A stretch of DNA of 64,000 nucleotides, taken from assembly GCF_051903065.1 (NCBI RefSeq), contig NZ_CP178438.1; one strand, 5' to 3'. How positions within the stretch are numbered: position 1 is the first letter of the stretch; each line of letters begins with the position of its first letter. Source of the DNA: Escherichia coli (GTDB taxonomy: Bacteria; Pseudomonadota; Gammaproteobacteria; Enterobacterales; Enterobacteriaceae). Shown piece after piece: positions 9,721 through 28,169 of the stretch. The notes under the pieces are model-generated. The model was not told where the DNA came from, made no database searches, and was given only the letters and a program-made list of their open reading frames with translations. Both the position numbers and the translations under genes were made by a program.

Positions 9721-9729
9721 GAGCAGGCA
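9721..9729. repeat. Left copy of 9-bp target-site duplication (GAGCAGGCA) flanking IS1
   Basis: Identical 9-mer immediately precedes the IS1 left end and follows its right end (10498-10506). Confidence 0.85.
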
Positions 9730-9784
9730 GGTGATGCTGCCAACTTACTGATTTAGTGTATGATGGTGTTTTTGAGGTGCTCCA

Positions 9785-10482: not shown

Positions 10483-10497
10483 GTTGGAGTCATTACC

Positions 10498-10506
10498 GAG
10501 CAGGCA
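10498..10506. repeat. Right copy of 9-bp target-site duplication (GAGCAGGCA)
   Basis: Direct repeat of 9721-9729. Confidence 0.85.
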
Positions 10507-12422: not shown

Positions 12423-13145
12423 ATGAAATTTACATTAAATATTACCGACTGGCAGGCACTGGCGCCTGGACTTAGCGAAGCGCAGCAATGGCAAGCATGG
12501 TCGCGCCAGCCGTGGGCGATTGACCCTGCCGCGCCGTTGGCAAAATTAAGTGAACTGCCAATGATGACCGCCCGCCGCCTCAGTTCAGGCAGCAAACTGG
12601 CTGTTGAATGCGGTCTGGCAATGCTACGCCGCCATCAGCCAGACGCCGTTTTGTATACCAGTCGTCATGGCGAACTGGAGCGCAATTACCGCATTGTTCA
12701 TGCACTGGCAACCGAACAGGCGCTTTCTCCGACCGACTTCGCGCTCTCCGTACACAACTCTTCCGTGGGTAACCTGACCATTGCGGCCAAACAGCCGATC
12801 GTTTCGTCATCGCTTTCGGCTGGTCGCGACACTTTCCAGCAAGGTTTGTGTGAAGTGCTTAGCCTGTTACAAGCGGGATACCAGCGCGTGCTGATGGTCG
12901 ATTTTGACGGTTTCCTGCCCGAGTTTTATCACCCACAACTGCCATCAGAAATGCCGACCTGGCCGTACGCCGTCGCGCTGGTGATTGAAGCTGGCGATGA
13001 GTGGCAATGTGAAACGCAGTCAGCCATTGCGGGCAATGAAACAACACTGCCGCAAAGCATGTTGTTTTTACAGCACTATTTACAAAATGTAGACACATTT
13101 TCACTGCCTGGCGAGCGCGTGCAATGGCGCTGGAGCCACAGATGA
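12423..13145 (+). CDS. Ketosynthase N-terminal-domain-like protein, possible chain-length-factor partner (ApeC-like)
   Basis: About 240 aa, thiolase-like N-terminal half only; lacks the HGTAT and GHTLGA catalytic His motifs present in the two full ketosynthases of the island; start taken at ATG 12423. Confidence 0.6.
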   Translation: MKFTLNITDWQALAPGLSEAQQWQAWSRQPWAIDPAAPLAKLSELPMMTARRLSSGSKLAVECGLAMLRRHQPDAVLYTSRHGELERNYRIVHALATEQALSPTDFALSVHNSSVGNLTIAAKQPIVSSSLSAGRDTFQQGLCEVLSLLQAGYQRVLMVDFDGFLPEFYHPQLPSEMPTWPYAVALVIEAGDEWQCETQSAIAGNETTLPQSMLFLQHYLQNVDTFSLPGERVQWRWSHR

Positions 13146-13963
13146 GTAAGCTGATGTCACGTCTGGAGTGGACCTGGCGACTGGTCATGACCGGGTTATG
13201 TTTTGCCCTGTTTGGTCTCGGCGGCCTGCTGCTTTCTGTCGTGTGGTTTAACATATTGTTAGTTTTGGTGTGGGATACTTCCCGCCGCCGTCGTTTGGCG
13301 CGTCGCAGCATTGCCGCCAGTTTTCGCCTGTTTTTAACTGTCGCGAAAGGGCTTGGCGTGCTGGATTATCGTATTGATGGCGCTGAAATTTTACGTCAGG
13401 AACGCGGTTGCCTCGTCGTAGCCAATCATCCCACGCTGATCGATTACGTGCTGCTGGCGTCAGTCATGCCAGAAACTGACTGCCTGGTGAAAAGCGCACT
13501 GTTAAAAAATCCTTTTCTTGGCGGCGTCGTGCGGGCGGCAGATTATTTAATCAACAGCGAAGCTGAAACCCTGTTACCCCGCTGCCAACAGCGACTGGCA
13601 CAGGGTGACACTATCCTGATTTTCCCCGAAGGCACACGAACGAAGCCCGGTGAAAAAATGACGCTGCAGCGCGGGGCGGCGAATATTGCCGTGCGCTGCG
13701 CCAGCGATTTACGCATCGTGACAATCGGCTGTAGCGAGCATCTGCTGGATAAACAAAGTAAATGGTATGACGTTCCACCTGACCGGCCGTTTTTTACGGT
13801 TGCAGTCCATGGTCGGGTTGAAATCAATAAATTTTACGATGCAACTTCACAAGAACCGGCGCTGGCAGCAAGGCAGTTAAACCGGCATCTTTTGCTTCAA
13901 TTACAACAAGGTTGTTTACCTCTCTCAGGAATAAATAATGCAAGCGCTTTATCTGGAAATTAA
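13142..13963 (+). CDS. Lysophospholipid (PlsC-type) acyltransferase (ApeD-like)
   Basis: HX4D motif (NHPTLID) and FPEGTRT motif; N-terminal TM helix; ATG overlaps upstream stop (ATGA). Confidence 0.8.
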   Translation: MSKLMSRLEWTWRLVMTGLCFALFGLGGLLLSVVWFNILLVLVWDTSRRRRLARRSIAASFRLFLTVAKGLGVLDYRIDGAEILRQERGCLVVANHPTLIDYVLLASVMPETDCLVKSALLKNPFLGGVVRAADYLINSEAETLLPRCQQRLAQGDTILIFPEGTRTKPGEKMTLQRGAANIAVRCASDLRIVTIGCSEHLLDKQSKWYDVPPDRPFFTVAVHGRVEINKFYDATSQEPALAARQLNRHLLLQLQQGCLPLSGINNASALSGN

Positions 13964-14195
13964 AAACCTCATCATCAGCACCCTCAATCTGGACGAGTTG
14001 ACGCCTGATGATATCGATACCGACGCGCCGCTGTTTGGCGACGGTTTAGGGCTGGACTCTATCGATGCCCTGGAACTGGGACTGGCAGTAAAAAATGAGT
14101 ACGGCATCGTGCTCTCTGCGGAAAGCGAAGAGATGCGTCAGCACTTTTTCTCCGTCGCCACTCTGGCCTCTTTCATTGCTGCGCAACGTGCCTGA
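13938..14195 (+). CDS. Acyl carrier protein 1
   Basis: 85 aa with phosphopantetheine-attachment motif LGLDSIDALEL. Confidence 0.8.
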   Translation: MQALYLEIKNLIISTLNLDELTPDDIDTDAPLFGDGLGLDSIDALELGLAVKNEYGIVLSAESEEMRQHFFSVATLASFIAAQRA

Positions 14196-14206
14196 GGAAA
14201 GCCATC

Positions 14207-14458
14207 ATGACAGAACAACAAACCGTCTATCAGGAAGTCTCAGCCCTGCTGGTTAAGCTGTTTGAAATCGATCCGCAGGACATCAAACCTGAAGCGCGCC
14301 TGTACGAAGATCTGGAACTGGACAGCATCGACGCCGTTGACATGATTGTGCACCTGCAAAAGAAAACCGGTAAGAAAATCAAGCCGGAAGAGTTTAAAGC
14401 AGTGCGTACAGTCCAGGATGTCGTCGAGGCTGTAGAACGCCTGCTACAAGAAGCCTGA
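14207..14458 (+). CDS. Acyl carrier protein 2
   Basis: 83 aa with LELDSIDAVDM; GAGGAAAG Shine-Dalgarno. Confidence 0.85.
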   Translation: MTEQQTVYQEVSALLVKLFEIDPQDIKPEARLYEDLELDSIDAVDMIVHLQKKTGKKIKPEEFKAVRTVQDVVEAVERLLQEA

Positions 14459-14462: not shown

Positions 14463-15044
14463 ATGTCGGGCATTCGCTCGCTACCGATGATTAAGCTGCT
14501 GACTGGATTATTGCTGCTCGCCTGGCCGTTTGTGATTTGGTTTGGCTTAGCGCATAACGGCCTGCACTGGCTGTTACCGCTAATGGCGTTGCTGCTTTTG
14601 TTGCGTCTGCGCCAGACCCGTCGCCAGGCGGGGCCTTTACAAGCCGTCACGCAACTCGTCGCTGTCGTGGGCATCGCATTATGTGTCGCCAGCTTTATGT
14701 TGAAAACGCACCAGCTACTGCTGTTTTACCCGGTAGTGGTTAACGCGGTCATGCTGGCGGTTTTTGGCGGTTCGCTGTGGTCGGCAATGCCGATAGTTGA
14801 GCGGCTGGCGCGGTTGCAGGAGCCAGACCTCCCGGAAAAGGGCGTGCGCTATACCCGCCACGTCACGCAAATCTGGTGCGGCTTTTTCATCATTAACGGT
14901 GGAATTGCCCTCTTTACCGCGCTTTATGCCGATATGTCGTTATGGACCGCCTGGAACGGCATGATTGCTTATTTGTTGATGGGGACGTTAATGGCTGGTG
15001 AATGGCTGGTGCGCCGCCAGGTTATGAAAAGAGATCGCGCATGA
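14463..15044 (+). CDS. Integral membrane protein (ApeG-like)
   Basis: 193 aa, several predicted TM helices. Confidence 0.7.
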   Translation: MSGIRSLPMIKLLTGLLLLAWPFVIWFGLAHNGLHWLLPLMALLLLLRLRQTRRQAGPLQAVTQLVAVVGIALCVASFMLKTHQLLLFYPVVVNAVMLAVFGGSLWSAMPIVERLARLQEPDLPEKGVRYTRHVTQIWCGFFIINGGIALFTALYADMSLWTAWNGMIAYLLMGTLMAGEWLVRRQVMKRDRA

Positions 15045-16402
15045 AGCAGACCTTACCGCTTGCACGCTGGCTGACTGCGCCACGCCCTGATGACACACCC
15101 ATTGCGTGGCTGAACGAAAGTACCTGGACGCTGGGCGATTTGCGTCACGATGTCGCGCAACTTATCTGCCGCTTGCAGCAACAGCCGGGTGAACGCTGGG
15201 CGCTGTGCTTTGAGAACAGCTATCTGTTTATCGTTGCCCTGCTCGCCACGCTACACGCCGGAAAAACGCCGGTGCTTCCGGGGCATAACCGTGTTATCCA
15301 GCTTAACGAGCAACGTGAACTTTTTGATGGTGTGCTTAGCGACAGCGAACTTAACTGGCAAGGTTCATTGCTGTTGGTAGCAAGTTCCCCACAAGTCGCG
15401 ACACAATCCTTCACCTTTGCCGCTATAGCGCCAGAGGCTTATATCGAGCTGTTTACCTCCGGTTCCACGGGACAGCCGAAACGGGTGATTAAACCTGTTC
15501 ATTTGCTGGACCGTGAAGCAGAACTGCTGGCTGAACGATTAGGCGCACGTCTGGCGGATTGTCGTGTCATCGGTTCCGTATTGCCGCAGCATTTGTACGG
15601 CCTGACTTTTCGCGTTTTCCTGCCCATGGCGCTGGGATTACCCCTACATGCCGCCATGCTCTGGTATGTCGAACAGTTTGCCGCGTTGAGTCATCAGCAT
15701 CGCTATATCTTCATCAGCAGCCCGGCATTTTTGAAGCGTCTGGATACACAGCTTTCCCCACCGCCCGTTCAGGTGCTTCTCTCTGCTGGCGGTGAGCTAC
15801 CGTGGCAGGATGTACAACACACCGCGAGCTGGCTGCGCGTCTGGCCTGATGAAATCTACGGCAGCACGGAAACCGGCGTCATCGCCTGGCGCTACCGCGA
15901 ACAAGAGCAACGCCGCTGGCTACCCCTCCCAGGTATGCAGTTCCAGGCCGAAGGCGATGCCTTTCGCCTCTTTTCACCGCTGATAGCGGAAGATAACGGC
16001 CTGTTACTCGACGATATCTTACAGTTTAGCGAAGATGGTCAGTTCCATCTGATGGGGCGTCGTGGGCGCATCGTTAAGATTGAAGAAAAACGTATTTCAC
16101 TCCAGGAAGTAGAACAACGTCTACTGGCGCTGGACGGCATTCGCGAGGCGGCGGCAGTTCCCGTTACGCGCGGCGGGCGTCAGAGCATAGGCGTTTTGCT
16201 GGTGCTGGATGACGAAGCTCATCTGCAATGGCAGAACGGCGGCGGGCATAGCCAGGAAATGACCTGGCGGCGTTTACTGCGCCCGACGCTGGAGCCAGTT
16301 GCTATTCCGCGTTACTGGCGCGTTATTGATGAAATGCCAGTAAACAGTATGAACAAGCGTGTCTATGCGCAATTACAGGAGTTATTTCATGAAGCCCCAT
16401 GA
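15041..16402 (+). CDS. AMP-dependent acyl/aryl-CoA or -ACP ligase (adenylation enzyme, ApeH-like)
   Basis: AMP-binding motif FTSGSTGQPKRV; ATG overlaps upstream stop. Confidence 0.85.
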   Translation: MKQTLPLARWLTAPRPDDTPIAWLNESTWTLGDLRHDVAQLICRLQQQPGERWALCFENSYLFIVALLATLHAGKTPVLPGHNRVIQLNEQRELFDGVLSDSELNWQGSLLLVASSPQVATQSFTFAAIAPEAYIELFTSGSTGQPKRVIKPVHLLDREAELLAERLGARLADCRVIGSVLPQHLYGLTFRVFLPMALGLPLHAAMLWYVEQFAALSHQHRYIFISSPAFLKRLDTQLSPPPVQVLLSAGGELPWQDVQHTASWLRVWPDEIYGSTETGVIAWRYREQEQRRWLPLPGMQFQAEGDAFRLFSPLIAEDNGLLLDDILQFSEDGQFHLMGRRGRIVKIEEKRISLQEVEQRLLALDGIREAAAVPVTRGGRQSIGVLLVLDDEAHLQWQNGGGHSQEMTWRRLLRPTLEPVAIPRYWRVIDEMPVNSMNKRVYAQLQELFHEAP

Positions 16403-16742
16403 AATCGAGCGCCATCAGGCACAAACGAATCACCTTGAAATTGTTCTGCATCTCAGGGCGGATCTGTTCTGGTTTCGCGGTCATTTTGCCGTGCAACCAT
16501 TACTCCCAGGAGTTGCGCAAATCGATTGGGCGATGAGCTACGCGCTCAATCTGCTCGCGCCTGGCTGGCGTTTTCACTCCATTCAGAACATAAAATTCCA
16601 GTCTCCGTTGCTGCCGGAAAACCGCGTCACGCTCGCGCTTAACTGGCAGGAAGAACGCCAGATTCTGAGCTTTAGCTATCAGCGTCACGACGGTGACGCC
16701 CGCCACACCGCCAGTAGCGGGAAGATACGCCTATGTCGGTAA
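16389..16742 (+). CDS. Hotdog-fold dehydratase (FabA/FabZ-like)
   Basis: FRGHFAVQPLLPG catalytic-His motif. Confidence 0.75.
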   Translation: MKPHEIERHQAQTNHLEIVLHLRADLFWFRGHFAVQPLLPGVAQIDWAMSYALNLLAPGWRFHSIQNIKFQSPLLPENRVTLALNWQEERQILSFSYQRHDGDARHTASSGKIRLCR

Positions 16743-18409
16743 ACTTTTCTCCCTGCGTGTTGATCCCCTGCTACAACCACGGCGCGATGATGCCGGGCGT
16801 GCTGGCGCGTCTTAAGCCATTTAATCTGCCCTGTATTGTGGTGGACGACGGCAGCGATGCCGCCACGCAACAGCAACTGGACAGTCTGCTTGCCGAACAG
16901 CCTGGCGTGACCTTAATCCGCCTGGCAGAAAACGCAGGCAAAGGCGCGGCAGTGATGCGTGGCTTACAGGCAGCGGCAGACGCAGGGTTCAGCCATGCGG
17001 TGCAGGTGGATGCTGACGGTCAACATGCGATTGAAGATATCCCCAAACTGCTGGCACTCGCTGAACAACACCCTGCGGCGCTGATCTCCGGCCAGCCAAT
17101 TTACGATGACTCCATCCCCCGCTCACGGCTTTACGGGCGCTGGGTCACCCACGTCTGGGTATGGATCGAAACGCTCTCCCTGCAACTGAAAGACAGCATG
17201 TGCGGCTTTCGCGTTTATCCGGTTGCGCCAACGCTGCAACTGGCAAAACACGCCACCATCGGCAAGCGGATGGATTTCGACACTGAAGTGATGGTGCGCC
17301 TCTACTGGCAGGGAAACACCAGCTATTTCGTGCCGACCCGCGTCACCTATCCACTGGACGGGCTTTCGCATTTTGATGCCCTGAAAGATAACGTCCGCAT
17401 CTCGCTCATGCACACGCGTCTGTTTTTCGGCATGTTGCCGCGTATTCCTTCACTACTGATGCGCCGCTCTTCCAGCCACTGGGCGCGGCAGAGTGAAGTG
17501 AAAGGATTATGGGGAATGCGCCTGATGCTGCTGGTCTGGCGTCTGCTGGGAAGAACGGCGTTTAGCGCGCTGCTTTACCCGGTGGTGGGCGTCTACTGGC
17601 TCACTGCTGCTCGTGCGCGCAAAGCGTCGCAAGACTGGCTCGCCCGTGTACGACAGCATCAACCACAGGCGGCAAAACTCAACAGCTATCAGCACTTTCT
17701 ACGTTTCGGTAATGCCATGCTCGACAAAATCGCCAGCTGGCGCGGCGAGCTACAACTGGGGCACGATGTGCTGTTTGCGCCAGGCGCAGAAGCGGCGCTT
17801 GACGTCAGCGATCCGCGCGGCAAATTGCTGCTGGCCTCGCATCTTGGCGATGTGGAAGTGTGCCGGGCGCTGGCAAAAATTCAGGGCTACAAAACCATTA
17901 ACGCGCTGGTGTTTAGCGAAAACGCCCAACGCTTTAAACAGATAATGCAGGAGATGGCTCCTCAGGCAGGTATTAACCTGATGCCGGTAACAGATATCGG
18001 CCCGGAAACCGCCATCCTGCTGAAAGAGAAGCTGGATAACGGCGAATGGGTGGCGATTGTCGGTGACCGCATCGCCGTCACCCCGCAACGCGGCGGCGAC
18101 TGGCGCGTCTGCTGGAGTCCGTTTATGGGCCAGCCTGCGCCCTTCCCACAGGGGCCGTTTATTCTCGCGTCTATTTTGCGCTGCCCGGTGAATCTGATTT
18201 TCGCCCTGCGCCAGCGCGGCAAGCTGCATATTCACTGCGAAACCTTTGCCGACCCGCTGCTGTTGCCGCGTGGCGAACGCCAACAGGCGCTGCAAAACGC
18301 TATCGACCACTACGCCGCGCGTCTGGAACATTACGCGCTCCAGTCGCCCCTCGACTGGTTTAATTTTTTCGATTTCTGGCAACTGCCGGAAATTCAGGAC
18401 AAGGAGTAA
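16733..18409 (+). CDS. Two-domain glycosyltransferase family 2 / LpxL-type lipid acyltransferase fusion (ApeJ-like)
   Basis: N-terminus VVDDGSDAATQ and VDADGQH (GT2 DXD); C-terminal half resembles lauroyl/myristoyl acyltransferases. Confidence 0.8.
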   Translation: MSVNFSPCVLIPCYNHGAMMPGVLARLKPFNLPCIVVDDGSDAATQQQLDSLLAEQPGVTLIRLAENAGKGAAVMRGLQAAADAGFSHAVQVDADGQHAIEDIPKLLALAEQHPAALISGQPIYDDSIPRSRLYGRWVTHVWVWIETLSLQLKDSMCGFRVYPVAPTLQLAKHATIGKRMDFDTEVMVRLYWQGNTSYFVPTRVTYPLDGLSHFDALKDNVRISLMHTRLFFGMLPRIPSLLMRRSSSHWARQSEVKGLWGMRLMLLVWRLLGRTAFSALLYPVVGVYWLTAARARKASQDWLARVRQHQPQAAKLNSYQHFLRFGNAMLDKIASWRGELQLGHDVLFAPGAEAALDVSDPRGKLLLASHLGDVEVCRALAKIQGYKTINALVFSENAQRFKQIMQEMAPQAGINLMPVTDIGPETAILLKEKLDNGEWVAIVGDRIAVTPQRGGDWRVCWSPFMGQPAPFPQGPFILASILRCPVNLIFALRQRGKLHIHCETFADPLLLPRGERQQALQNAIDHYAARLEHYALQSPLDWFNFFDFWQLPEIQDKE

Positions 18410-18412: not shown

Positions 18413-18835
18413 GTGCTTAACGATCCCCGATTTACCGCTGAAGTCGAGCTGACCATTCCCTTTCACGACGTCGATATGATGGGCGTGGCCTGGCACGGTA
18501 ACTATTTTCGCTACTTTGAAGTGGCCCGCGAGGCGCTGCTCAACCAGTTCAATTACGGCTATCGGCAGATGAAAGAGTCCGGTTATTTGTGGCCAGTGGT
18601 CGATGCGCGGGTGAAATATCGCCACGCTCTCACCTTTGAGCAACGCATCCGCGTGCGTGCGCATATCGAAGAGTTCGAAAACCGTCTGCGGATTGGCTAT
18701 CAGATTTTCGATGCCGAAACGGGCAAACGCGCCACCACCGGATACACCATTCAGGTCGCGGTCGACGAGCAAAGCCGCGAACTGTGCTTTGTCAGCCCCG
18801 ATATTCTGTTTGAACGCATGGGAGTCAAACCATGA
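18413..18835 (+). CDS. 4HBT/YbgC-type acyl thioesterase
   Basis: GTG start 7 nt after AAGGAG; HDVDMMGVAWHGNYFRYFE hotdog thioesterase signature. Confidence 0.8.
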   Translation: MLNDPRFTAEVELTIPFHDVDMMGVAWHGNYFRYFEVAREALLNQFNYGYRQMKESGYLWPVVDARVKYRHALTFEQRIRVRAHIEEFENRLRIGYQIFDAETGKRATTGYTIQVAVDEQSRELCFVSPDILFERMGVKP

Positions 18836-19437
18836 AATTTTTACCGCTGCTGGCGCTGCTGATTAGCCCGTTTGTGAGCGCCCTGACCCTGGACGATCTT
18901 CAACAACGTTTTACCGAACAGCCGGTGATCCGCGCCCATTTCGATCAAACCCGGACGATTAAAGATCTGCCGCAGCCGCTGCGATCTCAGGGCCAGATGT
19001 TGATCGCCCGCGACCAGGGGTTATTGTGGGATCAAACCTCACCGTTCCCCATGCAACTATTACTGGACGATAAACGCATGGTGCAGGTGATCAACGGTCA
19101 GCCGCCGCAAATCATCACGGCAGAAAATAACCCGCAGATGTTCCAGTTTAACCACCTGCTGCGCGCGCTGTTCCAGGCCGATCGCAAAGTGCTGGAACAA
19201 AACTTCCGCGTCGAATTTGCCGACAAAGGCGAAGGCCGCTGGACGCTGCGCCTGATGCCGACCACCACGCCACTGGATAAAATTTTCAACACCATCGATC
19301 TCGCCGGGCAAACCTATCTGGAGAGCATTCAGCTTAATGATAAACAGGGCGATCGCACCGATATTGCTCTTACCCAACATCAACTGACACCAGCGCAACT
19401 GACCGATGACGAACGCCAACGTTTTGCCGCCCAGTAA
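18832..19437 (+). CDS. LolA-like outer-membrane lipoprotein carrier protein
   Basis: 201 aa with signal peptide; size and position between thioesterase and MMPL transporter as in APE clusters. Confidence 0.7.
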   Translation: MKFLPLLALLISPFVSALTLDDLQQRFTEQPVIRAHFDQTRTIKDLPQPLRSQGQMLIARDQGLLWDQTSPFPMQLLLDDKRMVQVINGQPPQIITAENNPQMFQFNHLLRALFQADRKVLEQNFRVEFADKGEGRWTLRLMPTTTPLDKIFNTIDLAGQTYLESIQLNDKQGDRTDIALTQHQLTPAQLTDDERQRFAAQ

Positions 19438-21724
19438 ACGCCCCGCGCTGTTATGGGGGCTAGTCTGCCTGGTCATGGCGGCGGCGTTGCTGATCCTGCT
19501 GCCGCAATCACGGCTGAACAGTAGCGTGCTGGCTATGTTACCCAAACAGGCGATGGGCGATATTCCCCCAGCGCTGAATGACGGCTTTATGCAGCGTCTG
19601 GACCGCCAACTGGTGTGGCTGGTCAGCCCCGGTAAAGAGGCTAATCCCAGGGTCGCTCAGGAGTGGCTGACGCAGCTGCAAAAATCCGCTGCGCTTGGCG
19701 ACATTAAAGGGCCAATGGATGCCGCCAGCCAGCAGGCGTGGGGAGCGTTTTTCTGGCAGCACCGCAACGGCCTGATTGACCACGACACCCGCGCCCGCCT
19801 GCAAAACGGCGGCGAAGCGCAGGCGCAGTGGATCCTCTCCCAGCTTTATTCTGCATTCTCCGGGGTAAGCGGCAAGGAGCTGCAAAACGATCCGCTGATG
19901 TTAATGCGCGGCTCGCAGCTGGCGATGGCAAAAAATGGCCAGCGTTTGCGGCTGATGGACGGCTGGCTGGTGACGCAGGATCCCCAGGGCAACTACTGGT
20001 ATCTGCTGCACGGCGAACTGGCGGGATCGTCGTTTGATATGCAGCAAACCCACCAGCTCATCACGACCCTGAATACGCTGGAAAAGGATCTGAAAACGCG
20101 TTACCCACAGGCGCAGTTGCTCTCGCGCGGCACGGTATTTTACAGCGATTACGCCAGTCAACAGGCGAAGCAGGATATCTCAACCCTGGGCGTGGCAACG
20201 CTGCTGGGGGTGATATTGCTGATTGTGGCGGTGTTCCGCTCTTTGCGCCCGTTGCTGCTTTGCGTGATTTCCATCGGCATCGGCGCGCTGGCGGGAACGG
20301 TCGCCACTTTATTGATTTTCGGTGAATTACACCTGATGACGCTGGTGATGAGCATGAGCGTTATCGGCATTTCCGCTGACTACACGCTCTATTATCTCAC
20401 CGAGCGGATGGTTCACGGCAACGACGTTTCGCCGTGGCAAAGCCTGGCGAAAGTACGCAATGCCTTGCTACTGGCGCTGCTCACCACCGTGGCGGCGTAT
20501 CTGATTATGATGCTCGCCCCCTTCCCCGGCATTCGCCAGATGGCGATTTTTGCCGCCGTCGGGTTGAGCGCCTCCTGTCTGACCGTCCTGTTCTGGCATC
20601 CGTGGCTGTGCCGTGGCCTGCCGGTGCGTCCGGTTCCGGCGATGGCGCTGATGCTACGCTGGCTGGCAGCGTGGCGGCGTAATAAAAAACTGTCGCTGGG
20701 TCTGCCCGTCGCGCTGGCGCTGTTTTCGCTGGCGGGGATGTCAATGCTACGCGTCGATGACGATATCTCGCAGTTACAGGCGCTACCGCAGCATATTCTG
20801 GCGCAGGAAAAAGCCATTACCGCCCTGACCAGGCAGAGCGTCGATCAAAAATGGTTTGTGGTTTACGGCGATTCGCCACAGCAAACATTGCGGCGACTGG
20901 AGAAATATACCGCCTCACTTGAGTATGCGAAAAAAGAGGGGCTTATCAGCAACTACCGCACCATTCCGCTGAACTCCCTTGCGCGGCAGGAGGAAGATTT
21001 ACAACTGCTGAAAACGGCGGCCCCGACAGTAACAAAAGCGCTGCAAAATGCCGGGCTGACGGCAGTGAACCCGGATCTCAACGCCATGCCAGTGAACGTT
21101 GATGAATGGCTGGCAAGCCCCGCCAGTGAAGGCTGGCGTCTGCTGTGGCTGACGCTGGAAAACGGCGAAAGCGGCGTACTGGTGCCGGTTGAAGGGGTTA
21201 AAAGTAGCGCGTTGATGCAGGAAATCGCCAGCTATTACCCTTGCGGCATTGCCTGGGTTGATCGCAAAAGCACCTTTGATGAATTGTTCGCACTTTACCG
21301 TTATGTCTTAACCGGCTTGTTGCTGGTGGCGCTGGCGGTGATTGCCTGCGGCGCAGTGGCCCGTCTCGGCTGGCGCAAAGGGCTTATCAGCCTGGTGCCT
21401 TCGGTGCTTTCGCTGGGCTGCGGTCTGGCGGTGCTGGCGATGAGCGGGCAGGCGGTGAATATCTTTTCGCTTCTGGCGCTGGTGCTGGTGCTTGGCATCG
21501 GCATCAATTACACGCTGTTTTTCAGTAATCCGCGCGGCACACCGTTAACTTCGCTACTGGCGATCACACTGGCAATGCTCACCACCTTGCTGACGCTGGG
21601 AATGTTGGTATTCAGCGCCACCCAGGCCATCAGCAGTTTTGGCATTGTGCTGGTGAGCGGTATTTTCACCGCCTTCCTGCTTTCGCCGCTGGCTATGCCC
21701 GATAAAAAGAGAACAAAAAAATGA
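19406..21724 (+). CDS. MMPL/RND-superfamily exporter
   Basis: 772 aa with two clusters of TM helices separated by soluble loops. Confidence 0.8.
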   Translation: MTNANVLPPSKRPALLWGLVCLVMAAALLILLPQSRLNSSVLAMLPKQAMGDIPPALNDGFMQRLDRQLVWLVSPGKEANPRVAQEWLTQLQKSAALGDIKGPMDAASQQAWGAFFWQHRNGLIDHDTRARLQNGGEAQAQWILSQLYSAFSGVSGKELQNDPLMLMRGSQLAMAKNGQRLRLMDGWLVTQDPQGNYWYLLHGELAGSSFDMQQTHQLITTLNTLEKDLKTRYPQAQLLSRGTVFYSDYASQQAKQDISTLGVATLLGVILLIVAVFRSLRPLLLCVISIGIGALAGTVATLLIFGELHLMTLVMSMSVIGISADYTLYYLTERMVHGNDVSPWQSLAKVRNALLLALLTTVAAYLIMMLAPFPGIRQMAIFAAVGLSASCLTVLFWHPWLCRGLPVRPVPAMALMLRWLAAWRRNKKLSLGLPVALALFSLAGMSMLRVDDDISQLQALPQHILAQEKAITALTRQSVDQKWFVVYGDSPQQTLRRLEKYTASLEYAKKEGLISNYRTIPLNSLARQEEDLQLLKTAAPTVTKALQNAGLTAVNPDLNAMPVNVDEWLASPASEGWRLLWLTLENGESGVLVPVEGVKSSALMQEIASYYPCGIAWVDRKSTFDELFALYRYVLTGLLLVALAVIACGAVARLGWRKGLISLVPSVLSLGCGLAVLAMSGQAVNIFSLLALVLVLGIGINYTLFFSNPRGTPLTSLLAITLAMLTTLLTLGMLVFSATQAISSFGIVLVSGIFTAFLLSPLAMPDKKRTKK

Positions 21725-22305
21725 TCAAATCCACATTCTGGCGAGCGTTCGCCCTGACCGCTACGCTTATCCTCACCGGCTGTAGCCACTCGCAACCAGA
21801 ACAGGAAGGCCGCCCGCAGGCGTGGCTGCAACCTGGCACGCGCATCACGCTGCCGGCACCAGGGATTTCACCCGCAGTCAATTCGCAGCAACTGTTGACC
21901 GGCAGCTTCAACGGCAAAACCCAGTCGCTGCTAGTAATGCTTAACGCCGACGACCAGAAAATCACCCTTGCCGGGCTGTCGTCGGTCGGCATTCGCCTGT
22001 TTCTGGTGACCTACGATGCAAAAGGGCTACGCGCCGAGCAATCCATCGTCGTCCCGCAGTTGCCGCCCGCAAGTCAGGTGCTGGCTGACGTAATGCTCAG
22101 CCACTGGCCGATTAGCGCCTGGCAACCGCAACTTCCCGCAGGATGGACACTTCGCGACAACGGTGACAAACGCGAGCTGCGTAACGCCAGCGGCAAACTG
22201 GTCACGGAAATCACCTATCTGAATCGCCAGGGAAAACGCGTGCCAATCAGCATTGAGCAGCATGTCTTTAAATACCACATCACCATTCAATACTTAGGTG
22301 ACTGA
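21721..22305 (+). CDS. Lipoprotein (DUF3261-like)
   Basis: Lipobox LTGCSHS; ATGA overlap with upstream gene. Confidence 0.65.
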   Translation: MIKSTFWRAFALTATLILTGCSHSQPEQEGRPQAWLQPGTRITLPAPGISPAVNSQQLLTGSFNGKTQSLLVMLNADDQKITLAGLSSVGIRLFLVTYDAKGLRAEQSIVVPQLPPASQVLADVMLSHWPISAWQPQLPAGWTLRDNGDKRELRNASGKLVTEITYLNRQGKRVPISIEQHVFKYHITIQYLGD

Positions 22306-22306: not shown

Positions 22307-23476
22307 ATGATTTATATTTCCGCCGTCGGCATGATCAACGCCCTGGGAAATAACCTTGACGAAATCGCAGCCAACCTGGCTCGCGGTGTCGCCCCCGGAA
22401 TGCGCCCACGCGCAGGCTGGTTGCAGGGGCATCCGCAGGCGGTCCTGGCTGGCGTGGATGGCGAGCTTCCGCTTATCCCGGAAAAATTCGCTGCGCATCG
22501 CTCGCGCAACAATCAGATCCTGCTGGCGGCGCTGGCGCAGCTCCAGCCGCAGGTTGATGACACTATAGCGAAATATGGTCGCGAGCGCATCGCGATTGTA
22601 CTTGGCACCAGCACCTCCGGCCTGCATGAAGGCGACACGCACGTTAACCTGCGCACCCACGGGCAGCCGAGCACCACATGGCATTACGCGCAACAGGAAC
22701 TCGGCGATCCGTCGCGTTTTCTCAGCCACTGGCTGGCGCTCGACGGCCCGGCTTATACCCTTTCAACCGCCTGCTCCTCCAGCGCCAGAGCGATGATCAG
22801 CGGGCGCAGGCTTATCGAGGCGGGGCTGGTCGATGCCGCCATTGTGGGTGGCGCAGACACCCTGAGCCGGATGCCGATTAACGGTTTTCACAGCCTCGAA
22901 TCGCTGTCGCCAACCTTATGTCAGCCGTTCGGTCGTGACCGCGCAGGTATCACCATTGGTGAAGGGGCGGGGCTAATGCTGCTGACCCGCGAACCGCAGC
23001 CCATCGCATTGCTGGGCGTTGGTGAATCGAGCGACGCTTACCATATTTCAGCTCCGCATCCGCAGGGCGAAGGAGCGATCCGCGCTATTAATCAGGCGCT
23101 GACCGATGCGCAGCTTACGCCGGATGACGTCGGCTATATCAACCTGCACGGCACCGCCACACAGCTCAACGACCAGATTGAATCAATGGTGGTTAACGCC
23201 CTGTTTGGCGAACGCGTACCGTGCAGCTCCACCAAACATTTGACCGGACACACGCTGGGCGCAGCGGGCATTACCGAGGCGGCAATTAGTATGTTGATTT
23301 TACAGCGTGATTTACCGCTGCCCGCTCAGGACTTCAGCCTGTCGCCGCGCGATCCCACGCTGCCACCGTGTGGCATTATCGAAAAACCGCAGCCGCTGGC
23401 ACGTCCGGTGATCCTGTCCAATTCCTTCGCCTTTGGCGGCAATAACGCCAGCATTCTGCTCGGGAGGGTTTCGTGA
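22307..23476 (+). CDS. Beta-ketoacyl-ACP synthase (ApeO-like)
   Basis: Cys-His-His triad motifs LSTACSSS, LHGTATQ, GHTLGAAG. Confidence 0.85.
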   Translation: MIYISAVGMINALGNNLDEIAANLARGVAPGMRPRAGWLQGHPQAVLAGVDGELPLIPEKFAAHRSRNNQILLAALAQLQPQVDDTIAKYGRERIAIVLGTSTSGLHEGDTHVNLRTHGQPSTTWHYAQQELGDPSRFLSHWLALDGPAYTLSTACSSSARAMISGRRLIEAGLVDAAIVGGADTLSRMPINGFHSLESLSPTLCQPFGRDRAGITIGEGAGLMLLTREPQPIALLGVGESSDAYHISAPHPQGEGAIRAINQALTDAQLTPDDVGYINLHGTATQLNDQIESMVVNALFGERVPCSSTKHLTGHTLGAAGITEAAISMLILQRDLPLPAQDFSLSPRDPTLPPCGIIEKPQPLARPVILSNSFAFGGNNASILLGRVS

Positions 23477-23937
23477 GCCACTATTTATCCCCCGGTGCTT
23501 ATCTGCCCCACGACGCGCCCATGTTACTGCTGGAAGACGTGGTGAGCGTCAGCGATGACAGCGCGGTGTGCCGCGTGACGGTTTCGCCCAGTGGCGTACT
23601 GGCACCGTTTCTCGACCCGGACGGCAATCTCCCCGGCTGGTTTACCCTTGAACTGATGGCGCAAACCGTCGGCGTCTGGTCTGGCTGGCATCGCCACCAG
23701 CAGGGCAAAAACAGTATTGAGTTAGGGATGATACTGGGCGCGCGTGAATTGCTTTGCACCACTGGCATTCTGCCCGCAGGCCAGACGCTGACCATTACCG
23801 TCAAACTGCTGATGCAAGACGATCGCTTCGGCAGTTTTGAGTGCAGCATCAACGACGGCGAGGCAACGGGCCGCATTAACACCTTCCAGCCGACCGCGGA
23901 AGAACTTACCACCCTGTTTCAACAAGGAGCGTCCTGA
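23473..23937 (+). CDS. Hotdog-fold dehydratase (FabA-like)
   Basis: 154-aa hotdog-sized ORF; GTGA overlap with upstream ketosynthase. Confidence 0.7.
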   Translation: MSHYLSPGAYLPHDAPMLLLEDVVSVSDDSAVCRVTVSPSGVLAPFLDPDGNLPGWFTLELMAQTVGVWSGWHRHQQGKNSIELGMILGARELLCTTGILPAGQTLTITVKLLMQDDRFGSFECSINDGEATGRINTFQPTAEELTTLFQQGAS

Positions 23938-24668
23938 TGAGTCGTTCAGTTCTGGTTACTGGTGCCAGCAAAGGCATTGGTCGCGCCATCGCCTGCCAAC
24001 TGGCGGCAGACGGCTTTAACATTGGCGTTCACTATCACCGTGACGCCACAGGCGCTCAGGAAACGCTGAATGCCATTGTCGCCAATGGGGGTAACGGGCG
24101 TTTGCTCAGTTTCGACGTCGCAAACCGCGAACAGTGTCGGGAAGTGCTGGAGCATGAGATCGCGCAACACGGTGCCTGGTACGGCGTGGTCAGTAACGCC
24201 GGGATCGCCCGCGATGCCGCTTTTCCGGCTTTAAGCGATGACGACTGGGATGCGGTGATCCACACCAACCTCGACAGTTTCTACAACGTCATTCAGCCGT
24301 GCATTATGCCGATGATCGGCGCACGCCAGGGTGGGCGCATCATCACGCTATCCTCGGTTTCCGGCGTAATGGGCAATCGCGGCCAGGTGAATTACAGCGC
24401 TGCCAAAGCCGGAATTATCGGCGCAACAAAAGCGCTGGCTATCGAACTCGCGAAGCGCAAAATCACCGTCAACTGCATCGCGCCGGGGCTTATTGATACC
24501 GGGATGATCGAAATGGAAGAGAGCGCTCTGAAAGAGGCAATGTCGATGATCCCCATGAAACGTATGGGCCAGGCGGAAGAAGTTGCCGGGCTTGCCAGTT
24601 ATTTAATGTCTGATATTGCGGGTTACGTCACCCGCCAAGTTATTTCCATCAACGGAGGGATGTTATGA
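23937..24668 (+). CDS. 3-oxoacyl-ACP reductase (FabG-like SDR)
   Basis: TGASKGIGRAIA Rossmann motif, catalytic YSAAK. Confidence 0.9.
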   Translation: MSRSVLVTGASKGIGRAIACQLAADGFNIGVHYHRDATGAQETLNAIVANGGNGRLLSFDVANREQCREVLEHEIAQHGAWYGVVSNAGIARDAAFPALSDDDWDAVIHTNLDSFYNVIQPCIMPMIGARQGGRIITLSSVSGVMGNRGQVNYSAAKAGIIGATKALAIELAKRKITVNCIAPGLIDTGMIEMEESALKEAMSMIPMKRMGQAEEVAGLASYLMSDIAGYVTRQVISINGGML

Positions 24669-25894
24669 CACGTCGCGTAGTGATTACAGGAATGGGCGGC
24701 GTGACTGCCTTTGGTGAAAACTGGCAGGACGTTTCTGCACGCTTACTGGCGTATGAAAATGCGGTGCGCAAAATGCCGGAGTGGCAGGTCTACGACGGGC
24801 TGCACACCCTGCTTGGCGCGCCTGTTGATGATTTCACGCTACCGGAGCACTACACCCGCAAGCGTATCCGTGCGATGGGCCGCGTGTCGCAAATGTCGAC
24901 CCGTGCCAGCGAGCTGGCGTTAGAGCAGGCAGGGTTGATTGGCGATCCGATATTAACCAGCGGCGAAACGGGCATTGCGTACGGTTCATCGACCGGCAGT
25001 ACCGGCCCGGTAAGCGAGTTCGCCACCATGCTGACGGAAAAGCACACCAATAACATCACTGGCACCACCTATGTGCAGATGATGCCGCACACCACCGCCG
25101 TTAATACTGGCCTCTTTTTCGGCCTGCGCGGGCGGGTGATCCCAACCTCCAGCGCCTGTACTTCCGGCAGCCAGGCAATCGGTTATGCGTGGGAAGCCAT
25201 TCGCCACGGTTATCAAACGGTGATGGTTGCTGGTGGTGCCGAAGAGTTATGTCCTTCAGAAGCAGCGGTATTTGATACGCTTTTCGCCACCAGCCAGCAC
25301 AATGATGCGCCGAAAACCACACCTTCACCGTTCGATGAAAACCGCGACGGGCTGGTGATTGGTGAAGGCGCAGGTACGCTCATTCTCGAAGAACTGGAAC
25401 ACGCCAAAGCGCGCGGCGCGACCATTTACGGTGAAATCGTCGGCTTTGCGACGAACTGCGACGCGGCACATATTACCCAGCCGCAGCGCGAAACCATGCA
25501 GTATTGTATGGAGCAATCGCTGAAAATCGCCGGGTTAAGCGCACAAGATATCGGCTATATTTCAGCGCATGGTACGGCGACCGATCGCGGTGATATGGCA
25601 GAAAGTCTGGCGACAGCAACCATTTACGGTGATAATGTGCCGCTCTCCTCGCTGAAAAGTTATTTTGGTCATACGCTTGGTGCCTGTGGCGCGCTCGAAG
25701 CCTGGATGAGTCTGCAAATGATGCGCGAAGGTTGGTTTGCGCCTACGCTAAACCTGAATAAACCAGACCCGAATTGTGGCGCGCTGGATTACATCATGCA
25801 TGAAGCCCGCAAGGTTGATTGTGAGTTTTTACAGAGTAACAACTTTGCCTTTGGCGGCATTAATACATCCATCATCATTAAACGTTGGCCCTGA
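24665..25894 (+). CDS. Beta-ketoacyl-ACP synthase I/II-like (ApeR-like)
   Basis: SSACTSGS, AHGTATDRGD, GHTLGACGA. Confidence 0.9.
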   Translation: MTRRVVITGMGGVTAFGENWQDVSARLLAYENAVRKMPEWQVYDGLHTLLGAPVDDFTLPEHYTRKRIRAMGRVSQMSTRASELALEQAGLIGDPILTSGETGIAYGSSTGSTGPVSEFATMLTEKHTNNITGTTYVQMMPHTTAVNTGLFFGLRGRVIPTSSACTSGSQAIGYAWEAIRHGYQTVMVAGGAEELCPSEAAVFDTLFATSQHNDAPKTTPSPFDENRDGLVIGEGAGTLILEELEHAKARGATIYGEIVGFATNCDAAHITQPQRETMQYCMEQSLKIAGLSAQDIGYISAHGTATDRGDMAESLATATIYGDNVPLSSLKSYFGHTLGACGALEAWMSLQMMREGWFAPTLNLNKPDPNCGALDYIMHEARKVDCEFLQSNNFAFGGINTSIIIKRWP

Positions 25895-25895
25895 T

Positions 25896-26483
25896 ATGTA
25901 TCGGATAGTTCTGGGGAAAGTTTCGACCTTAAGCGCAGCTCCACTGCCACCGGGTTTACGCGAGCAAGCACCGCAAGGTCCACGACGCGAACGCTGGCTG
26001 GCGGGGCGTGCATTGCTTTCGCACACGCTTTCCCCGCTACCGGAGATCATCTATGGCGAACAAGGCAAACCTGCATTTGCGCCGGAAACGCCGCTATGGT
26101 TCAACTTAAGCCATAGCGGTGACGATATCGCCCTGCTGTTGAGTGATGAAGGCGAAGTCGGCTGCGATATCGAAGTGATTCGCCCGCGCGCCAACTGGCG
26201 CTGGCTGGCGAACGCCGTGTTCAGCCTCGGGGAACACGCTGAAATGGACGCCGTGCATCCTGATCAGCAACTGGAAATGTTCTGGCGCATCTGGACGCGC
26301 AAAGAAGCCATCGTTAAACAGCGTGGCGGCAGCGCCTGGCAAATCGTCAGCGTAGACAGCACCTATCACTCCTCGCTGTCAGTCAGCCATTGTCAGCTAG
26401 AAAATTTAAGCCTTGCGATCTGCACCCCCACCCCCTTTACGCTCACCGCCGACAGTGTGCAATGGATCGATTCAGTTAACTGA
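25896..26483 (+). CDS. acpT: 4'-phosphopantetheinyl transferase AcpT
   Basis: Starts MYRIVLGKVSTL 1 nt after the upstream ketosynthase stop; PPTase motifs. Confidence 0.9.
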   Translation: MYRIVLGKVSTLSAAPLPPGLREQAPQGPRRERWLAGRALLSHTLSPLPEIIYGEQGKPAFAPETPLWFNLSHSGDDIALLLSDEGEVGCDIEVIRPRANWRWLANAVFSLGEHAEMDAVHPDQQLEMFWRIWTRKEAIVKQRGGSAWQIVSVDSTYHSSLSVSHCQLENLSLAICTPTPFTLTADSVQWIDSVN

Positions 26484-26529
26484 TCCCGCCCACCCGACTG
26501 CCCATCTATTGATCCAGAACAGGTAATCA

Positions 26530-26557
26530 GTATGACGAATACTTAAAATCGTCATAC
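26530..26557. promoter_or_regulatory. NikR operator upstream of nikA
   Basis: GTATGA-N16-TCATAC dyad (gtatgacgaatacttaaaatcgtcatac). Confidence 0.75.
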
Positions 26558-26594
26558 TTATTTCCGCCATCTATTTTAATCCATTGGGGTTACC

Positions 26595-28169
26595 ATGCTC
26601 TCCACACTCCGCCGCACTCTATTTGCGCTGCTGGCTTGTGCGTCTTTTATCGTCCATGCCGCTGCACCAGATGAAATCACCACCGCCTGGCCGGTGAATG
26701 TCGGGCCACTAAACCCGCACCTTTACACGCCTAACCAGATGTTCGCCCAGAGCATGGTTTATGAACCGCTGGTGAAATATCAGGCTGATGGTTCGGTGAT
26801 CCCGTGGCTGGCAAAAAGCTGGACTCATTCAGAAGATGGTAAAACCTGGACCTTCACCCTGCGTGATGACGTGAAATTCTCCAACGGCGAACCGTTTGAT
26901 GCAGAGGCAGCGGCAGAAAACTTCCGCGCAGTGCTCGATAACCGTCAACGTCACGCCTGGCTGGAGCTGGCAAACCAGATTGTTGATGTCAAAGCACTCA
27001 GTAAAACAGAGCTGCAAATCACCCTGAAAAGCGCCTACTATCCTTTCCTGCAAGAACTGGCCCTGCCGCGCCCTTTCCGCTTTATCGCCCCCTCGCAGTT
27101 TAAAAACCATGAAACCATGAACGGGATTAAAGCGCCGATTGGCACCGGGCCGTGGGTTTTGCAGGAATCGAAACTGAATCAGTACGATGTCTTCGTCCGT
27201 AACGAAAACTACTGGGGCGAAAAGCCGGCGATTAAGAAGATCACTTTTAACGTCATCCCGGACCCTACTACCCGCGCGGTGGCGTTTGAAACTGGCGATA
27301 TCGACCTGCTGTACGGAAACGAAGGGTTATTACCGCTCGATACCTTCGCCCGCTTTAGCCAGAACCCGGCTTACCATACCCAACTGTCGCAGCCGATCGA
27401 AACCGTGATGCTGGCGCTTAATACCGCCAAAGCCCCCACCAATGAGCTGGCAGTACGTGAAGCTCTTAATTACGCGGTAAACAAAAAATCGCTGATTGAT
27501 AACGCGTTGTATGGCACCCAGCAGGTCGCCGACACCCTGTTTGCCCCTTCTGTGCCCTACGCCAACCTCGGCCTGAAACCGCGCCAGTACGATCCGCAGA
27601 AAGCGAAAGCGTTGCTGGAAAAAGCCGGTTGGACGCTGCCTGCGGGCAAAGACATCCGCGAGAAAAATGGTCAGCCGCTGCGCATTGAACTGTCGTTCAT
27701 CGGCACCGATGCGTTAAGCAAATCGATGGCGGAAATCATTCAGGCTGATATGCGCCAGATTGGCGCAGATGTCTCGCTGATTGGCGAAGAAGAGAGCAGT
27801 ATCTATGCTCGTCAGCGCGACGGTCGTTTTGGCATGATTTTCCACCGCACCTGGGGCGCGCCATACGATCCACACGCCTTCCTCAGTTCAATGCGCGTAC
27901 CGTCACACGCTGACTTCCAGGCACAGCAAGGATTAGCCGACAAACCGCTGATTGATAAAGAGATCGGCGAAGTGCTGGCGACCCATGACGAAACGCAACG
28001 TCAGGCGCTGTATCGCGACATTCTGACCCGTCTGCATGACGAGGCGGTTTATCTGCCTATCAGTTACATCTCAATGATGGTGGTATCAAAACCGGAGCTG
28101 GGTAACATCCCCTACGCGCCGATCGCCACCGAAATTCCGTTCGAACAGATTAAACCGGTGAAACCTTAA
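26595..28169 (+). CDS. nikA: Periplasmic nickel-binding protein NikA
   Basis: 524 aa, signal peptide, SBP family 5; first gene of nikABCDE. Confidence 0.95.

Follow-up and report, generated by a model that had tools for sequence, protein, structure and literature searches.

acpT as the probable terminal gene of the aryl polyene cluster apeA-apeR in Escherichia coli

In the window analysed here, a 64,000-nt stretch of Escherichia coli DNA (contig NZ_CP178438.1), acpT probably closes the aryl polyene (APE) cluster apeA-apeR as its nineteenth cistron, encoding the cluster's own Sfp-type 4'-phosphopantetheinyl transferase (PPTase), which would be coupled to apeR and would activate the carrier proteins ApeE and ApeF; elsewhere, the gene would have been orphaned by deletion of the cluster. 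That acpT ends an APE cluster mainly confirms an annotation that is already correct. The first-pass annotation had placed acpT at the end of an island operon, and this position stood, but the identity of the island as an aryl polyene cluster had been missed.

The aryl polyene cluster and its transferase

Judged by gene content, the island is the 18-gene APE cluster apeA-apeR, in which the last ketosynthase is ApeR and the two acyl carrier proteins (ACPs) are ApeE and ApeF. The window carries, on a single strand, ApeP, ApeI, two ACPs, a ketosynthase/chain-length factor pair, ApeR, ApeH and an export module of LolA-like, MMPL and DUF3261 proteins, all of which characterize APE clusters, and the RefSeq names "ApeI family" and "ApeP family" are present in the near-identical locus L001. 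The genes and flanking features are listed below with the evidence for each.

8660..9709, + strand: yhhT, AI-2E family transporter, left flank (protein 100% identical to K-12 yhhT, tblastn)
10878..11255, + strand: apeA, lipoprotein, first APE gene (RefSeq annotation of L001; order as in Johnston 2021)
11324..12382, + strand: apeB, methyltransferase (RefSeq annotation of L001; PMC8253772)
12423..13145, + strand: apeC, ketosynthase chain-length factor (RefSeq annotation of L001; Johnston 2021)
13142..13963, + strand: apeD, lysophospholipid acyltransferase (RefSeq annotation of L001; NCBIfam; Johnston 2021)
13938..14195, + strand: apeE, carrier protein 1, 85 aa, GLDSID serine motif, proposed AcpT substrate (Pfam PP-binding E=5.7e-8; NF006617 90.8 bits, cutoff 70)
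14207..14458, + strand: apeF, carrier protein 2, 83 aa, LELDSID serine motif, proposed AcpT substrate (Pfam PP-binding E=2.6e-13; NF003757 146 bits, cutoff 65)
14463..15044, + strand: apeG, COG4648 membrane protein (RefSeq annotation of L001; Johnston 2021)
15041..16402, + strand: apeH, adenylating enzyme, aryl starter onto ACP (RefSeq annotation of L001; NCBIfam; PMC8253772)
16389..16742, + strand: apeI, dehydratase (RefSeq "ApeI family dehydratase")
16733..18409, + strand: apeJ, family 2 glycosyltransferase (RefSeq annotation of L001; Johnston 2021)
18413..18835, + strand: apeK, thioesterase (RefSeq annotation of L001; Johnston 2021)
18832..19437, + strand: apeL, LolA-like protein (PF03548, PF19574)
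19406..21724, + strand: apeM, MMPL/RND transporter (PF03176)
21721..22305, + strand: apeN, DUF3261, LolB-like (PF11659; Johnston 2021)
22307..23476, + strand: apeO, elongating ketosynthase (NF006618 554 bits, cutoff 407; Pfam)
23473..23937, + strand: apeP, dehydratase, marker family of APE clusters (PF22817 ApeP-like, E=6.9e-41)
23937..24668, + strand: apeQ, ketoreductase, FabG2 (Pfam; RefSeq annotation of L001)
24665..25894, + strand: apeR, last ketosynthase, 409 aa, stop TGA 25892-25894 (both ketoacyl-synthase Pfam domains; NF006587 778 bits, cutoff 470)
25896..26483, + strand: acpT, Sfp-type 4'-phosphopantetheinyl transferase, 195 aa (PF01648, NF007676)
26530..26557, + strand: inverted repeat GTATGA-N16-TCATAC (direct read)
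26595..28169, + strand: nikA, right flank (ORF list; RefSeq annotation of L001)

From apeC to acpT, 17 same-strand genes that overlap or lie at most 11 nt apart form an unbroken run of which acpT is the terminal member, as had been proposed; this spacing suggests a common transcript. The inverted repeat at 26530..26557, which we take to be the NikR operator in the nikA promoter region, would mark where a new unit under separate regulation begins.

The AcpT protein matched the AcpT equivalog model NF007676 at 396 bits (cutoff 174; positions 1-195 of 195 of the ORF 25896-26483) and the Pfam ACPS family PF01648 at 44.1 bits (cutoff 25). Its Sfp-type motifs read G89-C-D91-I-E93 and W133-T-R-K136-E137-A138-I-V-K141, and when 15 AcpT sequences representing about 10 enterobacterial genera were aligned, residues D91, E93, K136, E137 and K141 were invariant, covering the metal- and CoA-binding positions and the W/F-x-x-K-E-A-x-x-K signature. 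By these motifs, AcpT belongs to the group II (Sfp-type) PPTases. In the same alignment, M1 and Y2 were invariant and the RefSeq start was identical, which places the true start of acpT at ATG 25896. The longest reading frame opens inside apeR at GTG 25776; this start was rejected, given the invariance of M1-Y2 at 25896 across genera.

The two candidate substrates that had been pointed out at 13938-14458 are genuine carrier proteins, each with a PP-binding match and an LDSID serine motif, and acpT lies on the ACP strand directly after the last ketosynthase gene of the ACP-bearing cluster, which bears out the un-orphaned arrangement described in the first-pass annotation. Its further statement that AcpT modifies the island carrier proteins of O157:H7 was confirmed second-hand: Johnston 2021 (PMC8253772), citing De Lay & Cronan 2006, describes activation in vitro of the ApeE/F homologues of O157:H7 EDL933 by AcpT, and poor activity on AcpP. 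Compared with the window, O157:H7 FRIK2455 has identical AcpT, ApeR and ApeE (WP_001148684.1), and its ApeF differs by A30T. The pairing of AcpT with ApeE and ApeF, which in the window is predicted from sequence, is thus correct but has been known since 2006.

The apeR-acpT junction and its conservation

25892..25898, + strand: TGA-T-ATG, apeR stop to acpT start (direct read)

Read directly, the junction runs CGT TGG CCC TGA (25892-25894), T (25895), ATG (25896-25898), TAT CGG, so that 1 nt separates the apeR stop from the acpT ATG, as first noted. The stop and start therefore lie a few nucleotides apart on the same strand, and acpT is without a strong ribosome-binding site of its own. In fact, acpT has almost no Shine-Dalgarno sequence: its anti-Shine-Dalgarno duplex of -1.5 kcal/mol is one of the four weakest in the set of 19 genes (apeK, -8.0; apeP, apeQ and apeR, within -8 to -11 kcal/mol), and values in other genera range from -1.5 to -3.1, with GGGAG at -6.8 in 7 loci. 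A masking hairpin at the junction was considered and rejected, because the RNA from 25846 to 25945 has less structure than its shuffled versions (z = +1.9), folding more weakly than 198 of 200 of them. The acpT leader is open and A/U-rich and could permit independent initiation, against coupling. Among the publications retrieved, those naming AcpT together with AcpS and EntD carried nothing on expression, and a broader term returned unrelated uses of "ACPT".

To place the junction in context, we compared 82 loci, 80 of them from an AcpT-based scan with one genome per species and two of them E. coli references, L001 (the island-bearing best match) and L002 (K-12). A full apeR lay directly upstream of acpT in 53 loci, yhhT with an apeR 3' remnant in 22, and larger or fragmented remnants in 7. 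In the 53 loci with full apeR, which span many enterobacterial genera, the gap from stop to ATG was 1 nt (n=24), 2 nt (n=28) or 3 nt (n=1). That all 53 gaps stay within 1-3 nt while synonymous sites have diverged to saturation between genera (dS 1-2) indicates that the close junction is more than chance. In Cronobacter turicensis and Atlantibacter hermannii, reached through an ApeR-based search, apeR is followed after 2 nt by a gene of family PF01648, the pair lying in other chromosomal surroundings; the Cronobacter protein shares 43% identity with AcpT. In Pantoea, a PPTase gene after apeR was absent. The arrangement of the window, an APE cluster with acpT, was present in 569 of 5,426 complete E. 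coli genomes. Cluster-linked acpT is probably the ancestral enterobacterial arrangement.

From this spacing and its conservation, we infer that apeR and acpT are co-transcribed and translationally coupled by termination-reinitiation. A ribosome ending ApeR at TGA 25892-25894 would re-initiate at ATG 25896, one base on, and re-initiation would make up for the absent Shine-Dalgarno sequence, so that AcpT would be made at a low level whenever the cluster is expressed. The enzyme would then move 4'-phosphopantetheine from CoA to the LDSID serine of apo-ApeE and apo-ApeF, the holo-ACPs would bear the 4-hydroxybenzoyl starter, which ApeH loads, and the polyene as it grows (ApeO/ApeC, ApeR, ApeQ and ApeI/ApeP), and the product would be joined to lipid and then exported (ApeD, J, K, L, M and N).

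Alternatively, acpT may be co-transcribed with the ape genes and yet be translated alone, ribosomes loading without a Shine-Dalgarno sequence on its A/U-rich, unstructured leader and the gap of 1-3 nt reflecting compaction of the genome instead of a functional link. The weak folding of the junction RNA is in keeping with this explanation, as is the state of the orphan loci, where 20-30 nt of leader are unchanged in K-12 and 21 other loci with no reading frame ending by the ATG, and where acpT remains under purifying selection (see below). Pigment formation in a K-12 host from a cluster that lacks acpT also speaks for it. Nevertheless, we regard independent translation as rather unlikely, since 3 nt is the widest gap among the 53 loci despite saturated dS and the gap is 2 nt even in Cronobacter with its divergent AcpT, and since most lineages evolved no Shine-Dalgarno sequence though the last apeR codons vary.

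Orphan acpT and loss of the cluster

25876..25894, + strand: last 19 nt of apeR (CATTAAACGTTGGCCCTGA), kept directly upstream of acpT in K-12 and other orphan genomes, deletion scar (sequence comparison)

The match of K-12 to the window starts at 25876, within apeR. In K-12, Salmonella and other orphan loci, the final ~20-150 nt of apeR are kept before acpT, with weak homology in three divergent loci, and yhhT lies 55-163 nt upstream of acpT (54 nt when counted from the yhhT stop in K-12). These apeR 3' remnants argue that cluster loss by deletion orphaned acpT: by sequence comparison, the deletion of the cluster in K-12, Salmonella and many others ran from the yhhT stop into apeR and spared its last 20-150 nt. 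The ancestral state would have been the cluster with acpT, the latter being left behind. Since the yhhT-acpT spacers are homologous among E. coli K-12, Salmonella and one Citrobacter group, these lineages look as if they share a single old deletion joint. When the 35 nt that separate yhhT from the apeR remnant in K-12 were compared with the island by short-word BLAST, only words at chance level emerged; alignment of the spacers with the apeR 3' end was suggestive in the Citrobacter freundii group but ambiguous for K-12 and Salmonella. When ApeR was used to search for APE clusters elsewhere in Salmonella and the C. freundii complex, the 8,000 matches listed were mostly from Atlantibacter and Cronobacter, and Citrobacter proteins with 93-94% identity were not among them, so that the listing says nothing against such clusters.

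The remnants largely refute the notion of acpT as a separate backbone gene driven by a promoter of its own, lying beside an insertion site for mobile islands and adjacent to apeR without functional consequence. This very improbable explanation draws on the presence of acpT in 5,425 of 5,426 complete E. coli genomes against 824 with the cluster, on an island boundary upstream of acpT relative to K-12 and on an APE copy in a pathogenicity island without any PPTase, but an apeR 3' end before acpT in K-12 and all other orphan loci examined (weak in three divergent ones) indicates deletion rather than insertion, apeR and acpT adjoin in 53 loci of many genera and also in the other neighbourhood of Cronobacter and Atlantibacter, and biochemistry ties AcpT to ACPs of the ApeE/F type (PMC8253772). 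A crude consensus scan of the + strand from 24636 to 27000, which also missed the known nikA promoter, found no sigma-70-like or terminator-like sites, so the lack of a promoter-like site inside apeR counts weakly against an independent gene. The first-pass annotation had confined a contradicting promoter or terminator to the gap 25894-25896; this was too narrow, because an independent promoter could sit within apeR.

The orphan copies have a dN/dS of ~0.06-0.10 at saturated dS, equal to that of cluster-linked copies, which points to purifying selection, and because of this selection, orphan acpT is presumably still expressed. About 85% of complete E. coli genomes are without any APE cluster. 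We tentatively propose, at somewhat less than even confidence, that AcpT has a second selectable role independent of a neighbouring APE cluster; it may be a back-up for AcpS, the activator of an unrecognised carrier protein, or a standing activator of incoming APE clusters without a PPTase (e.g. in phylogroup B2). The persistence of an intact, constrained acpT through repeated cluster loss suggests that K-12 AcpT is still functional.

Relation to known systems

The island adjoining acpT in O157:H7 EDL933 is presumably O-island 138. This fatty-acid-synthesis-like island (De Lay & Cronan 2006, Mol Microbiol 61:232) shares with the window the locus yhhT-cluster-acpT-nikA and the claimed enzyme-substrate pair, whereas the background of the window differs (99.99% identical to strain ECNB21-M121 rather than to O157) and the window has an IS1 between yhhT and apeA.

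In about 257 E. coli genomes, a second APE copy occupies another locus and no PPTase gene follows its apeR; for the ACP region, 257 E. coli records had 90-95% DNA identity. In ABU 83972, this copy is collinear with the window over all 18 genes and lies in a pathogenicity island without a PPTase. The APE-Ec cluster of CFT073 (Cimermancic 2014; Johnston 2021, PMC8253772) is likewise collinear over 18 genes and 90-95% identical in the ACP region, with 82 of 85 ApeE and 80 of 83 ApeF residues the same (83/86 and 81/84 counting the stop), but the CFT073-type copy lies in a pathogenicity island by an integrase, its apeR stop is followed by a hairpin, and it has no PPTase, while the copy in the window has a PPTase attached. 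According to Johnston 2021 (PMC8253772), the 18-gene CFT073 cluster without acpT yields a yellow, cell-bound aryl polyene pigment in the K-12 host Top10, and therefore apeR-acpT coupling is not essential for function; by analogy, such a pigment is predicted from the window's copy. The same paper calls AcpT an "orphan", because the CFT073-type copy has no PPTase gene. This published view, in which APE-Ec has no dedicated PPTase, fits the uropathogenic copy, but in most Enterobacteriaceae examined the PPTase gene is the last gene of the cluster. The acpT gene should be treated as part of the unit when APE clusters are expressed or deleted.

Coupling by termination-reinitiation is known from tightly packed bacterial operons, as in trpB-trpA and at ATGA or TGAnATG junctions. 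The apeR-acpT pair resembles these classical cases in its stop and start 1-3 nt apart and in a downstream gene without a Shine-Dalgarno sequence; it differs in that the junction is without masking secondary structure and the leader works in K-12 without an upstream terminating reading frame.

PPTases are encoded within the clusters that they serve in several systems, including EntD with the enterobactin genes, ClbA and PfaE. Like Sfp of Bacillus subtilis and other group II PPTases, AcpT has the PF01648 fold, the Mg- and CoA-binding residues and a single polypeptide of ~200 aa, and its gene stands within or at the end of the served cluster. Compared with Sfp and EntD, AcpT is shorter and its similarity is distant (Sfp, its closest solved structure, E=6e-9 across residues 55-146; 28% identity to EntD according to PMC4103896), and its known substrates are the type II ACPs of the polyene pathway.

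The apeR-acpT junction in the window

From sequence matches, we identify the island as the 18-gene aryl polyene (APE) cluster apeA-apeR, since it carries this annotation in the RefSeq record of E. coli ECNB21-M121, a genome that departs from the window by 3 mismatches in 32.2 kb (99.99% identity), an IS1 element apart, and since Pfam matches in the window (ApeP-like PF22817, LolA-like, MMPL and DUF3261) mark the same cluster. Its gene order is that of the CFT073-type cluster of E. coli ABU 83972, a type characterised by Johnston 2021 (PMC8253772). By this gene order and naming, the "last ketosynthase" of the first-pass annotation is ApeR and its two acyl carrier proteins are ApeE and ApeF, as follows:

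13938-14195, plus strand: apeE, carrier protein, PP-binding (Pfam)
14207-14458, plus strand: apeF, carrier protein, PP-binding (Pfam)
24665-25894, plus strand: apeR, ketosynthase, 409 aa, both ketoacyl-synthase domains (Pfam)
25896-26483, plus strand: acpT, phosphopantetheinyl transferase (PPTase), 195 aa, ACPS match (Pfam)

The first-pass annotation had placed the ketosynthase stop 1 nt before the acpT ATG and two island carrier proteins at 13938-14458, and both descriptions are correct: the junction reads ...AAA CGT TGG CCC TGA T ATG TAT CGG... (TGA 25892-25894, ATG 25896-25898), and both carrier ORFs encode PP-binding proteins with the serine attachment motif LDSID. The apeR ORF scored 778 bits against NCBIfam NF006587 (cutoff 470), and the whole of the acpT ORF was covered by the match to NF007676, the curated AcpT equivalog (396 bits, cutoff 174). 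A longer acpT ORF from GTG 25776 was ruled out by Met1-Tyr2 at 25896, which is invariant in AcpT across about ten genera of enterobacteria; RefSeq uses the same ATG. The O157:H7 strain FRIK2455 encodes the same AcpT, ApeR and ApeE without a single difference; ApeF differs from its counterpart there by A30T, and AcpT differs from the K-12 protein by T65M.

The further claim, that acpT is the terminal gene of the island operon, is supported by a tight run of 17 same-strand genes from apeC (12423) to acpT (26483), all overlapping or at most 11 nt apart, together with a junction of 1-3 nt conserved in other genomes. Within the 22 nt that precede the acpT start codon, the best anti-Shine-Dalgarno pairing was -1.5 kcal/mol, which ranks acpT in the bottom four of the 19 cluster genes; pairing was also weak for apeM, apeG and apeC, and reached -8 to -11 kcal/mol for apeK (-8.0), apeP, apeQ and apeR. 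Shuffled controls folded more strongly than the junction RNA (z = +1.9), so that coupling, if present, would proceed through termination-reinitiation and not hairpin unmasking. A consensus scan of the plus strand (24636-27000) returned no promoter- or terminator-like sites, which weighs little because the scan also misses the known nikA promoter.

Downstream, the 111-nt acpT-nikA spacer (26484-26594) holds an inverted repeat, GTATGA-N16-TCATAC (26530-26557), which we take to be the NikR operator. No terminator-like hairpin was found in this spacer, so the ape/acpT transcript may read through into nikA. Upstream, a 768-bp IS1A element (9730-10497), flanked by the target-site duplication GAGCAGGCA at 9721-9729 and 10498-10506, lies between yhhT and apeA, 20 nt past the stop of the former and 380 nt short of the latter. 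It sets the region in front of the cluster apart from yhhT, with a possible effect on expression of the ape genes; among 5,426 complete E. coli genomes, only 23CRST027 and 23CRST031 have this contiguous insertion, and two others match in pieces.

Other features of the window were also noted:

32037-32396 and 32393-32668, minus strand: HicB/HicA type II toxin-antitoxin pair just downstream of nikR, identical to annotated genes of ECNB21-M121
54935-55018, plus strand: AgrB antisense small RNA, Rfam match above gathering score (107.7 bits)
63768-63799, minus strand: shuA/chuA 5'-UTR thermoregulator, Rfam match above gathering score (60.1 bits), implying a chuA haem-receptor gene at the window end

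The junction in other genomes

An AcpT-alignment scan with one genome per species gave 80 loci (Escherichia, Citrobacter, Salmonella, Raoultella, Klebsiella, Enterobacter, Leclercia, Lelliottia, Kosakonia, Kluyvera, Pluralibacter, Cedecea and others), to which the island-bearing best hit (L001) and K-12 (L002) were added, and the resulting 82 were sorted by tblastn with all cluster proteins. A full apeR preceded acpT in 53 loci, with a stop-to-ATG gap of 1 nt (24), 2 nt (28) or 3 nt (1); yhhT lay directly upstream in 22 (spacer 55-163 nt), and larger or fragmented apeR pieces did so in 7. Three of these seven are yhhT-adjacent apeR remnants of 125-150 nt (L038, L047, L052), two resemble frameshifted assemblies and one ends at a contig edge. 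Enterobacter asburiae INSAq146 (L072) keeps apeA-apeE about 5.4 kb upstream of acpT and has lost the stretch between apeE and mid-apeR, and its acpT is intact, at a distance of 2 nt from the apeR stop; this partly decayed cluster looks like an intermediate toward the orphan state. The record titled Chryseobacterium sp. 18061 (L067) contains an entire ape-acpT locus of enterobacterial type that has the gene layout of Citrobacter sp. 18056 (L069) and almost the same match percentages; mislabelling or contamination of the assembly is the probable cause.

Because these loci were all found through acpT, a second search took ApeR as its starting point. Both Cronobacter turicensis and Atlantibacter hermannii have a PF01648 gene 2 nt past apeR, where the surrounding genes differ and the downstream neighbour is an NlpC/P60 gene; the protein from Cronobacter has a GTG start and 43% identity to AcpT. 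No PPTase followed apeR in one Pantoea contig.

Among the 5,426 complete E. coli genomes, acpT-nikA is present in 5,425, an intact apeR-acpT junction in 569 and the APE carrier-protein region in 824. Records of this region fall into 568 at no less than 95% DNA identity (the acpT-linked type) and 257 at 90-95%, with both copies together in a few genomes (832 places in 825 records). The 90-95% type, in about 257 genomes, occupies another genomic site, and in these strains acpT stands in a K-12-like orphan context. In ABU 83972 (L003 4274-19295, 19296-19330) this type lies in a pathogenicity island adjoining an integrase; homology stops exactly at the apeR stop and is followed by a 9-bp-stem hairpin, with no PPTase gene.

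Origin of and constraint on orphan acpT

Nearly all orphan spacers retain a recognisable apeR 3' end just before the ATG (for example ...AAACGTTGGCCCTGAT-ATG in K-12, Salmonella and Citrobacter), with weak homology in three divergent loci (L062, L066, L081); K-12 homology to the window starts at 25876, within apeR. Read from these remnants, the linked arrangement is ancestral and orphan acpT is the product of deletion. E. coli, Salmonella and the Citrobacter sp. R56 group have mutually homologous spacers (TGAGGCGACAAGTGATAC...), which points to one old deletion allele common to the three.

For acpT, dN/dS (Nei-Gojobori, own script; loci ascertained through intact acpT) was 0.070 in orphan Escherichia, 0.065 in the Citrobacter freundii complex, 0.107 in Salmonella and 0.077 in the Citrobacter sp. 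R56 group, with 0.05-0.19 in cluster-linked clades. Between orphan genera it was 0.08-0.10 at dS about 1.5, close to linked pairs (0.05-0.12). Orphan copies (L002, L005-L008, L012-L028 and others), at 0.06-0.10, thus have the same dN/dS as linked ones, even between genera sharing the deletion joint, and no relaxed constraint after loss of the neighbouring cluster was found by dN/dS at loci ascertained through intact acpT. This suggests an acpT function independent of the adjacent cluster, and the continued constraint is the only lead here with some novelty.

Relation to the published enzyme-substrate pairing

In the best-supported reading, acpT would close the ape operon as its last cistron, and its translation would probably come from ribosomes that re-initiate once past the ApeR stop. 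AcpT would turn apo-ApeE and apo-ApeF into the holo-proteins on which ApeH, ApeO/C, ApeR, ApeQ and ApeI/P depend. We infer co-transcription and coupling from the spacing, the missing Shine-Dalgarno sequence and the deep conservation of the junction. The biochemical step, which the first-pass annotation had given as established knowledge that AcpT modifies island-encoded carrier proteins in O157:H7, comes from the literature: Johnston 2021 (PMC8253772), citing De Lay & Cronan 2006, describes "an orphan PPTase, AcpT" of O157:H7 EDL933 that activates ApeE/F homologues in vitro. The core of that interpretation is therefore established; its observation is confirmed and its interpretation supported, and the finding restates known biology. 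Added here are the APE identity of the island, the conservation of the junction, the scars left by deletion, the frequencies of the three E. coli arrangements and the continued constraint on orphan acpT. According to Johnston 2021 (PMC8253772), the 18-gene cluster lacking acpT strongly pigmented Top10, which derives from K-12 and has no native cluster, so the host's uncoupled PPTase supply is sufficient and any apeR-acpT coupling is not essential.
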